From contig CAWFGE010000013.1 of assembly GCA_963815195.1 (NCBI GenBank), positions 1,149,031 to 1,213,030 of the forward strand: 64,000 bases of DNA, in the 5' to 3' direction. Both the position numbers and the translations under genes were made by a program. Shown here piece after piece: positions 31,348 to 33,662 of the stretch (its first letter is position 1; every line of letters starts with the position of its first letter). Source of the DNA: an uncultured Planctomycetaceae bacterium. Its GTDB lineage: Bacteria; Planctomycetota; Planctomycetia; Planctomycetales; Planctomycetaceae. The notes beneath the pieces are model-generated. The model did no database searches. It worked only from the letters and a program-made list of their open reading frames with translations, and was not told the DNA's origin.

Positions 31348-32940
31348 TCAGCCGAGTTTGTCCAGCGCCTGTTTCAAGGGTTCGCCTTGTTTCGGGTTGA
31401 CCATGTGGATGTAGGCGATCATGCCGCGGACCCAGCCTTCGAAGTGCGGCCGGCCTTCGCGGTTCTGGCTTTCCAGGCCTTCAAACTGGGCGCGATGCAG
31501 AATCGCCCGCAGCCGGCGGACCAGTTTCCGCGGCACGCTGGGATGTTCGTTGACGACGATCCCCGTCACCATTTGGGCGGTGTGCGGGCAGTGCACGCGG
31601 GTTTTCTTCTGGTTGATCCGAAAGCCCTCGTCCTCGGCGATGTGCCGGATTTTCGCGAGCAGCCAGCCGATCTTTTCCGCCACCTCGCCGCTGCCTGAGA
31701 ACGTGATGTCGTCCGCATACCGCGTATACCGGCTGTCCAGTTTTTCCGCGAGCCCCGTGAGGCGTTTGTCGAGTTTCCAGGCGACGAGATTGCTGATCGC
31801 CGGACTCGTGCACGCGCCCTGCGGCAGCGACCGCGGCCCGGTGGCGACGTGGAATTTCGTGCCGGCCAGGAGCACCGACCGGCGCGGGCATTCGGTGGTC
31901 AACAGGGCCAAGATCGTGGCGACCGCGGGCGAGTAACCGATCCGCCGAAAGAATCCCATCACGCGGGGAAAGGTGATCGAGGGGAAAAACTCTTCCAGAT
32001 CGCAATTCACGACCGCGGACTGATGGGTGTGAAGCTTCGCCCCGGTGACGGTCGAGCGCCCGGCGACAAACCCGTGGGCCGCGGCGTGCACGGGGATGTT
32101 TTTTAGGATGTTCGCGAGAATCCAGCGCTGGCAGCGGTCCATCTCGCGGTGCGGCTTGGCGAGTTCGCGGAGCCCGCCGCTCTTTTTGGGCACGCTGAAG
32201 CGAATGTAATGCGTCCGCGCCGAGGCCACGTTATGAAATGCCAGCCATCTTAACCGGGGAATCGAAACGTCGAGCGCCTTCGCCAGATCGCCTGGCGTCG
32301 CCAGCACCGGGAGGCCGAACTTTTGCAGCGATTCCACGTTCGCCCGGCGGTCGGCAAGGCCCTTGGAAACGCCTCGGCCGAGAAAAATAATGTCCGCCTG
32401 ACGCCGCTCCGCGATTTCCGCCTGCCGCTGCCTTCTTCGCTCGGCGGCTTCGGCTTTTTTTTGCTGCTTGAGGTCGGCCCGGGCCTCTTTTGTTTGTTCG
32501 AGCACGCGGTTCGCGCGGTGGGCGACGTGGCGCATCGTCGGGCGGACGGCGTCCATCTCCGCACCGATTTCGTGGATGTCCTCCAACTCTTCCGGCGTGA
32601 TGAAACCGTGCGTGACCATCGCCCGGTCGATCAATCGCGTCCGCGGATCGTCCGGCGGCGGAATCAAATCCTGCCGACCAAACCAGGGGTTCATCCAGCC
32701 GAGTTGGTCGGCCTCGGCATGCATCTCCGCGTGGGACATCGTCGTGTATTGGCCCACGTCATAAGCTTCCGGCGGGATGATCCCCACGGGTTCAACGCGA
32801 ACGGCTGGTGATTCCGCGGCGGGGGACGGCTTCTCGGGCGGCCAGCTTTCCGTGGGCGCCTGATGCGGTTCGAGCGGTTGATAGGGTTTGGCGGGCTCCG
32901 CCGGGCTGAACAAGGAGAGCAACCAATTGAAGAATCTCAT
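31348..32940 (-). CDS. Retron-type reverse transcriptase (530 aa) with long N-terminal extension
   Basis: VPKKSGGLREL, AAHGFVAGRS, DLEEFFPSI, LPQGACTSPAISN, YTRYADD, retron region-Y VTGIVVN; GAGG upstream of the ATG at 32940. Confidence 0.92.
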   Translation of the reverse strand: MRFFNWLLSLFSPAEPAKPYQPLEPHQAPTESWPPEKPSPAAESPAVRVEPVGIIPPEAYDVGQYTTMSHAEMHAEADQLGWMNPWFGRQDLIPPPDDPRTRLIDRAMVTHGFITPEELEDIHEIGAEMDAVRPTMRHVAHRANRVLEQTKEARADLKQQKKAEAAERRRQRQAEIAERRQADIIFLGRGVSKGLADRRANVESLQKFGLPVLATPGDLAKALDVSIPRLRWLAFHNVASARTHYIRFSVPKKSGGLRELAKPHREMDRCQRWILANILKNIPVHAAAHGFVAGRSTVTGAKLHTHQSAVVNCDLEEFFPSITFPRVMGFFRRIGYSPAVATILALLTTECPRRSVLLAGTKFHVATGPRSLPQGACTSPAISNLVAWKLDKRLTGLAEKLDSRYTRYADDITFSGSGEVAEKIGWLLAKIRHIAEDEGFRINQKKTRVHCPHTAQMVTGIVVNEHPSVPRKLVRRLRAILHRAQFEGLESQNREGRPHFEGWVRGMIAYIHMVNPKQGEPLKQALDKLG

Positions 32941-32983
32941 AACGCCGGCTGTTCCTCGCCTCGCCCGATCCTCTCGGAGGGAA

Positions 32984-33197
32984 AAACACGACCGGCCAAC
33001 TGACTGCGAGCGGCGGACCAAGGTCGTTCACTCAGGCTCCCCGACGTACTGTCACGGGGGGAAGCCTTGGCTTGTCGTGGCCCACGTGACAGTACGTCGG
33101 GGAGCCACACGAACAACGGCCTTGGGGAAGCATGGCAGGGCAAACTCAACCACGGCGGATCGCCGTAGTAAATTGGTCTCAGTTGGCCGGCGTGTTT
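32984..33197 (-). ncRNA. Retron msr-msd non-coding RNA
   Basis: a1/a2 arms 32984-33003 and 33179-33197 (12 bp perfect + 1-nt bulge + 7 bp); unpaired G at 33178 directly after the arm; msr hairpin 33150-33168; 22-bp perfect hairpin 33035-33056/33085-33106; lies directly upstream of the RT. Confidence 0.82.
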
Positions 33198-33252: not shown

Positions 33253-33324
33253 TGAGCCGCGCACGTAGTAAGCGGTTTTCAAGATCTCAGAAATCGTAAT
33301 ACCGCTTACTACGTGCGCGGCTCA
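33253..33324. repeat. Intergenic palindrome, same family as 22090-22161
   Basis: TGAGCCGCGCACGTAGTAAGCGGT ... ACCGCTTACTACGTGCGCGGCTCA. Confidence 0.85.
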
Positions 33325-33392: not shown

Positions 33393-33662
33393 TCATCCCT
33401 TCCGGCCGCCTTTTTGCCAGTTGATGCGGTTGTGGGTGAGGATGCCGTTCCGGAGGGCGCACTGCAGGCAGACTTTTTCGTCATCATGCTGCAGATAGAC
33501 TTCGCCGTGCATCAACAAGTGGAAAAAATCCTCGCCGGGCTTTTTGTGAAAGCAGAACTCCTTCTCCCAGTTCTGCTTGACATGCGCGGCCCAGCCCTCG
33601 GGAGCGGACAGATAAGCCCGGACATCGGGGACATCGTCTTCGGTGGGATCTGTTTCGGCCAT
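33393..33662 (-). CDS. Small hypothetical protein (89 aa) with a CxxC motif
   Basis: GAGGTG RBS before MAETDP; CLQC; lies directly after the Ldh gene. Confidence 0.7.
   Translation of the reverse strand: MAETDPTEDDVPDVRAYLSAPEGWAAHVKQNWEKEFCFHKKPGEDFFHLLMHGEVYLQHDDEKVCLQCALRNGILTHNRINWQKGGRKG

Follow-up and report, generated by a model that had tools for sequence, protein, structure and literature searches.

As shown in Table 1, the window (the whole 64,000-nucleotide stretch analysed) carries on its minus strand a retron cassette in which an msr-msd non-coding RNA is followed by a reverse transcriptase (RT) gene. The cassette is located between an Ldh_2 dehydrogenase gene with an 89-aa ORF and a convergent UbiD gene, and the locus is surrounded by housekeeping genes, not by a defence island. 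Scanning for promoters and terminators gave no minus-strand site for the RT and RNA cassette, and no RNA run was listed among the sequencing runs that hold this DNA.

Table 1. Features of the retron cassette. Positions are those of the window.
Feature	Position	Strand	Basis or remark
msr-msd non-coding RNA	32984..33197	-	fold, covariation
a1/a2 inverted repeat, 5' arm	33179..33197	-	complement of 33003-32984
a1/a2 inverted repeat, 3' arm	32984..33003	-	complement of 5' arm
predicted branching (priming) guanosine	33178	-	invariant 37/37; immediately after stem
G opposite the predicted branching G	33004	-	invariant 37/37
msr stem-loop	33150..33168	-	8 bp including one U-G
conserved C-rich block	33124..33131	-	Cs at 33130, 33126, 33125 and 33124 invariant
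msd template: lower stem, 22-bp long stem, apical loop	33018..33125	-	covariation
22-bp perfect long stem	33106-33085/33056-33035	-	sequence
lower stem	33125-33115/33028-33018	-	11 positions, one RNA mismatch
type XIII retron RT (by profile), 530 aa (P0001), with ~200-aa N-terminal extension	31348..32940	-	PADLOC RT_XIII, Pfam RVT_1
region X motif GAKLH (vs NAxxH)	32029..32043	-	translation
YADD catalytic motif	31708..31719	-	invariant 33/33
VTG, region Y start	31561..31569	-	invariant 33/33

The 89-aa ORF (33393-33662) matched no Pfam family. It is syntenic and conserved in G304 and G305 (dN/dS about 0.1) and absent from the RT locus of G306, and it probably belongs to the dehydrogenase operon. 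Upstream of the RNA, a 27-bp hairpin (33253-33324) was found to be a dispersed palindromic repeat with roughly 100 sites in the genome. A near-exact 216-nt tandem duplication between the RT and UbiD genes (30876-31091/31110-31325) may be real or an assembly artefact; its core is another dispersed repeat family with roughly 160 sites. Both elements were rejected as retron parts because they are dispersed repeats.

By its sequence, the protein belongs with the type XIII (Mx162-like, clade 10) retron RTs, a placement made from profile scores rather than from a tree of named references. The best PADLOC model was RT_XIII (508.9 bits, E 3.8e-153), with a margin of 143 bits over the next model (365.8). 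The group II intron (60.9 bits), Drt2 (35.5) and Drt3a (32.3) models all scored far below their cut-offs, and a group II intron, DRT or DGR RT was rejected on these scores. The solved structures nearest to the RT were retron RTs, with Eco1 (Ec86) at Foldseek rank 1 (E 2e-36); the structure model was moderate (pLDDT 65.7) and served this comparison only. Eco1 itself is a type II-A retron whose operon carries a different effector, and its 320-aa RT lacks the long N-terminal extension; such extensions are known in myxobacterial retron RTs (Simon 2019, PMC6868368). The closest named loci were from Planctomycetaceae, and a protein 61% identical to the RT is named for a cultured planctomycete, Thalassoroseus pseudoceratinae. 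The retron identity and the planctomycete host proposed by the earlier note were thus upheld, and the ATG, 43 nt past the 3' arm, and the YADD and VTG motifs that it had listed are all present. A TTG at 33021, in frame and within the RNA, was not favoured as the start because the alignment of close homologues begins at the ATG at 32940.

In region X, the A and H were invariant among the RT homologues aligned. The first residue was G in all four genus members, and among 120 protein rows it was N in 90 and G in 23. The validated retrons Mx65 and Ec48 also deviate from NAxxH (Simon 2019, PMC6868368), so GAKLH does not disqualify the protein as a retron RT. The RT N-terminus (32700-32940) begins with a short hydrophobic/aromatic segment followed by a proline-rich linker, and a crude scan of full-length RT rows (P0003-P0121) found a transmembrane-like stretch within the first 70 residues in 19 of 112. 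It is possible that the N-terminus tethers the RT to a membrane.

The RNA was examined by folding and by comparison with 37 homologous RNAs from related loci, onto which four helices drawn from the window sequence were projected. A 236-nt msr-msd region folded at -124.3 kcal/mol (z = -9.65), far beyond chance, and was matched by 0 of 200 shuffles. The pairing cells of the four helices were paired in 88.9% of cases against 31-45% in slid controls, a comparison tilted toward the observed value since the helices were taken from the window's own RNA. Changes on both sides were found at 40 of 52 pairs, and the score was reached by 0 of 500 shuffles; relatedness among the 37 RNAs also raises this observed value. 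The msr-msd RNA is real. It is present as a single copy in the genome (one strong nhmmer match), and Rfam gave no family at gathering score, with chance miRNA-like matches alone.

Every RNA element that the earlier note had read from the letters lies where it had been placed. The two arms pair and their inner pairs covary (11 of 12), and the predicted branching G faces a G that is equally invariant. The short hairpin is in place, with 99.7% of its cells paired and strong sequence conservation; it is likely the element recognised by the RT. The 22-bp perfect hairpin is likewise where the note had it, and compensatory changes occurred at all 22 of its pairs, which indicates that the length of the stem is kept and not its sequence. 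The lower stem, which the note had described as an extension of this hairpin, exists (96% paired, sequence conserved) as a separate helix, with an internal loop of 8/6 nt between the two. Compensatory RNA changes go on inside the genus whose RT and SWIM genes are split (see below).

Synthesis of msDNA from this RNA is very probable. The plus strand from 33005 to 33131, folded as DNA, gave a z of -7.92. Template copying presumably starts at 33005, by analogy with the start positions of other retrons, and the msDNA would end near 33124-33131 at a length of about 125-130 nt. By this analogy the start at about 33004 and the length of roughly 110-120 nt given earlier were revised. The priming role of G33178 is suggested by retron biology (Simon 2019, PMC6868368). 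The C-rich block is the predicted RNA:DNA overlap and msDNA 3' end by analogy with Mx162, whose overlap has 8 bases (Simon 2019, PMC6868368). Since the long stem is fixed in length while its sequence changes freely, it likely serves as a duplex scaffold or decoy and not as a sequence guide. Such a natural set of msd stems, of fixed length and free sequence, would be useful for retron engineering.

Type XIII corresponds to clade 10 (Mx162, Mx65, Sa163, Ne144), in which the RT is linked to a SWIM-DEDE protein and usually to a HEAT/ARM protein (Mestre 2020, PMC7736814). The locus had been called a complete retron; this holds for the RT and RNA core, whereas the type XIII partner genes lie elsewhere in the genome. 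SWIM was directly upstream of the RNA and RT at each of the 13 informative loci from outside the Planctomycetaceae, and HEAT preceded SWIM wherever the flank was long enough; these counts leave out L034, L041 and L042, in which the flank was too short or the RNA missing or partial. At L042:1-330, the 3' end of the RNA alone precedes the RT and is fused to unrelated sequence, which is either a chimeric contig or a broken RNA.

In the source genome, the orthologous SWIM gene (P0002, a putative nuclease effector) was located on another contig (C12:1097005-1098723) with a HEAT/ARM gene just upstream. Its product showed 45-62% identity to linked SWIMs, as against 32-35% for the genome's other SWIM. 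PADLOC called SWIM_XIII (610 bits) and HEAT-ARM_XIII (424 bits) on C12, and an ESM Atlas search returned SWIM-family clusters alone. P0002 conserves the DEDE residues (D145, D153, E158, D192, E231), with the last two spacings one above those published, and the CxC-x12-CxH residues (C519, C521, C534, H536); both sets are retained in at least 95% of 41 SWIMs. No WGR-type partner was found at the RT locus.

The RT and SWIM loci are each about 31 kb from contig ends, so at least about 60 kb separate them. The two genes are split in all four genomes of the genus. A single contig of G301/G305 carries both loci with 283 kb between them, so an assembly break is ruled out in that case. HEAT and SWIM have come apart more than once: in G304 an intact HEAT is at a third locus, while the two are linked in its sister, the source genome. 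The source HEAT gene carries a 90-nt deletion that keeps the frame, and two 1-nt frameshifts, both of them losses in homopolymer runs. A contig from a DNA sequencing run, which was the best match and may be the source sample, confirmed the deletion; the frameshift sites were outside its coverage, and the frameshifts may be assembly errors. Frame breaks were found in 7 of 44 other gene comparisons among assemblies, a rough proxy in which either side may be faulty. HEAT is intact in G304 and G305, and L039 has no segment similar to the 90-nt one.

A predicted complex of the RT with SWIM scored 0.38 against 0.00 for the best control, with runs agreeing in 76% or more of the contacts and partner pLDDT of at least 70, and gives weak support for binding: in calibration, a pass with a score no higher than 0.60 was obtained for 18 of 157 solved complexes and for 2 of 215 mismatches, which were all the mismatches that passed.

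Co-occurrence was surveyed in 398 genomes of the family with E-value cut-offs picked to isolate the subclade (1e-125 for RT, 1e-130 for SWIM, 1e-40 for HEAT). The RT subclade was found in 45 genomes, SWIM in 40 and HEAT in 38. Among the 275 high-quality genomes, the identical 27 carry RT and SWIM, 26 of them with HEAT; these carriers are kin, not independent, and most belong to two genera. According to the flanks, RT and SWIM are split in 16 of the 27 and linked in 8, and contig ends prevent a call in 3; most of the split cases are bins with the loci on different contigs. The RT with its RNA, SWIM and HEAT are spread over three contigs in G693, G607, G592 and G632. In G479, which is a bin with 440 contigs and 5% contamination, RNA, RT, SWIM and HEAT appear to be all apart: the 6 kb or so preceding the RT contain no RNA, and a single intact msr-msd was found on another contig.

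The free-standing RNA of G479 (L174:1505-1711) is between two unrelated metabolic-looking ORFs. Two msr-msd copies per operon were seen in four other genomes, in tandem in G494 and G410 and flanking SWIM in G352 and G358 (L148, L156, L098, L099). The two msd stems differ in sequence in both G494 and G410.

RT, SWIM and HEAT are under purifying, housekeeping-like selection. Against three genus members, dN/dS was 0.15-0.18 for RT, 0.115-0.14 for SWIM and 0.15-0.31 for HEAT segments, rough values by the Nei-Gojobori method with frameshifts trimmed; the housekeeping neighbours gave 0.07-0.18, with dS similar to that of the retron genes. GC3 agrees with that of host genes. The RT and SWIM trees of 18 split genomes were correlated at r 0.96, an agreement that vertical descent alone predicts. 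Split genomes occupy three places on the best RT tree. A claim of several independent RT/SWIM splits was dropped since a single origin was not rejected (AU p 0.29). The change of N to G in region X was likewise rejected as a marker of the split, since the split is also seen in G693 and the g335 genomes, which retain N. Rearrangement is extensive across the genus and dispersed repeats lie beside the cassette; ordinary shuffling therefore probably produced the split, with no need for a special cause. What needs explanation is the lack of loss after the split.

The retron core is ordinary and belongs to a known type; the scattered arrangement is the interesting part. The source shares with type XIII the RT family, the N-terminal extension and vertical inheritance, and also the a1/a2 repeats with facing Gs, a likeness in layout rather than in an alignment to the Mx162 sequence. 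As in type XIII, SWIM-DEDE and HEAT/ARM partners are present in the genome, the HEAT/ARM gene with its two frameshifts. They are described as linked in that type, but here the distance runs to tens or hundreds of kb, and relatives have all of them at separate loci. The source also differs from type XIII in having no WGR-type partner at the locus and in its GAxxH. Stand-alone retrons of clades 2 and 11 (e.g. Ec107) resemble it in having an RT and RNA with no adjoining effector. However, most hosts of such orphan retrons lack known effector homologues (Mestre 2020, PMC7736814, where effectors in trans are raised as a question), whereas the source genome has the cognate effector genes, and they are conserved. 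The detached RNA of G479 recalls Retron-Nex1 (Ne160), which has msr-msd repeats with no nearby RT and to which the duplicated RNAs of G494, G410, G352 and G358 can also be likened. The Ne160 copies were read as dispersed and possibly retrotransposed (Simon 2019, PMC6868368); in G479 the sole copy found is detached and intact.

A general definition of retrons is given in PMC12475279. Planctomycetota account for 26 of 143 type XIII candidates (PMC13712802), and SWIM was the top accessory module in SPIRE (n = 50 among 143 type XIII candidates), a count for which fragmented contigs partly account. With no other genes present, pairs of clade 10 RT and RNA ranked near the top for RT-DNA production in E. 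coli (Khan 2024, PMC10849725), and the table in that source has 17 type XIII rows, none of them planctomycete. In the open-access literature searched, no report of a scattered and co-retained arrangement was found, and the supplement of Mestre 2020 may list such orphans.

The best reading of the locus is a vertically inherited retron with an effector assembled in trans. We consider it a working type XIII retron whose operon was broken by chromosome rearrangement and whose parts still act together, with a probability of about 0.6. The RNA would fold on its a1/a2 arms, and the RT would prime from the 2'-OH of G33178 and copy the template from about 33005 to about 33131. The product would be a branched msDNA that carries the 22-bp stem and is about 125-130 nt long. 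The RT-msDNA particle would bind P0002 and the adjoining HEAT/ARM protein in trans and would restrain the effector until the msDNA is disturbed by some trigger, for which phage is the most likely candidate. A complex of the parts in trans is likely: the partner genes are far off and still kept, which suggests that the parts come together within the cell. The nuclease role of SWIM is putative, following the motif analysis of Mestre 2020 (PMC7736814), and the sensor-effector logic is modelled on characterised retrons. An anti-phage role is an even call; the open-access literature searched gives no phenotype for any type XIII system. The housekeeping locus, the G for N in region X and the HEAT frameshifts count against this reading, as does the long vertical retention, which anti-phage systems do not usually show.

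The same parts in the same trans complex could have been domesticated for a non-defence job such as DNA processing or stress signalling, and domestication would account for the housekeeping-like retention and for the operon being dispensable. The dN/dS, dS and GC3 values, the neighbourhood and the all-or-none retention of the parts are in line with this explanation, and Mestre 2020 (PMC7736814) notes the vertical inheritance of type XIII and raises domestication. We nevertheless regard it as unlikely: presence in 27 of 275 high-quality genomes is patchy, which fits a dispensable system, those retrons with effectors that have been characterised act against phage, and no host-gene neighbour was conserved across the split genomes examined.

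It is improbable that the RT and RNA form an autonomous orphan cassette, with the interaction gone and SWIM and HEAT kept for reasons of their own. The stand-alone cassettes of clades 2 and 11 (Mestre 2020, PMC7736814) offer a precedent, the complex prediction is weak, and co-occurrence could reflect shared ancestry. Independent genes would be expected to go separately, however, and this RT without this SWIM, or the reverse, occurred in 0 of the 275 high-quality genomes; in G479 even the RNA and the RT are apart yet both intact. A decaying retron that no longer makes msDNA, its pieces relics, is very improbable, although region X has lost its N and the source HEAT gene has two frameshifts and a deletion. 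Values of dN/dS are far below 1 and YADD and VTG are intact. The region X G recurs in 23 of 120 rows, and validated Mx65 also lacks the N. The frameshifts are of the homopolymer kind, in a gene intact in G304 and G305 and among assemblies with other frame breaks, and the deletion is in frame and contig-confirmed, with a similar segment missing in L039.

The preferred reading of a scattered, still cooperating retron matters because retrons are defined and detected as operons, and this lineage is a concrete trans case with named partner genes. By implication, defence finders that rely on gene neighbourhood under-call type XIII systems. A bolder and doubtful version is that of a distributed four-part machine in a Planctomycetaceae lineage, with RNA, RT, SWIM-DEDE nuclease and HEAT scaffold at separate loci, gained and lost only as a set and assembled in trans, possibly with a permanent non-defence job. 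If it were true, many of the retrons and msr-msd RNAs now classed as orphans would belong to complete systems that escape neighbourhood-based tools.

Two further RT loci were seen in the source genome. L045 (G000:C23:234450-247151) is a second type XIII system with a frameshifted RT. Its SWIM is about 9.5 kb upstream of the RT, with ORFs between them that we interpret as transposase-like, and the msr-msd model found no RNA there; this system looks disrupted, unlike the retron of the window. L003 (G000:C20:330452-331456) encodes a third retron-like RT. Distant RT matches (38-44% to P0001) were found in all 15 family genomes sampled, which suggests that RTs like L003 form a family-wide, core-like group.
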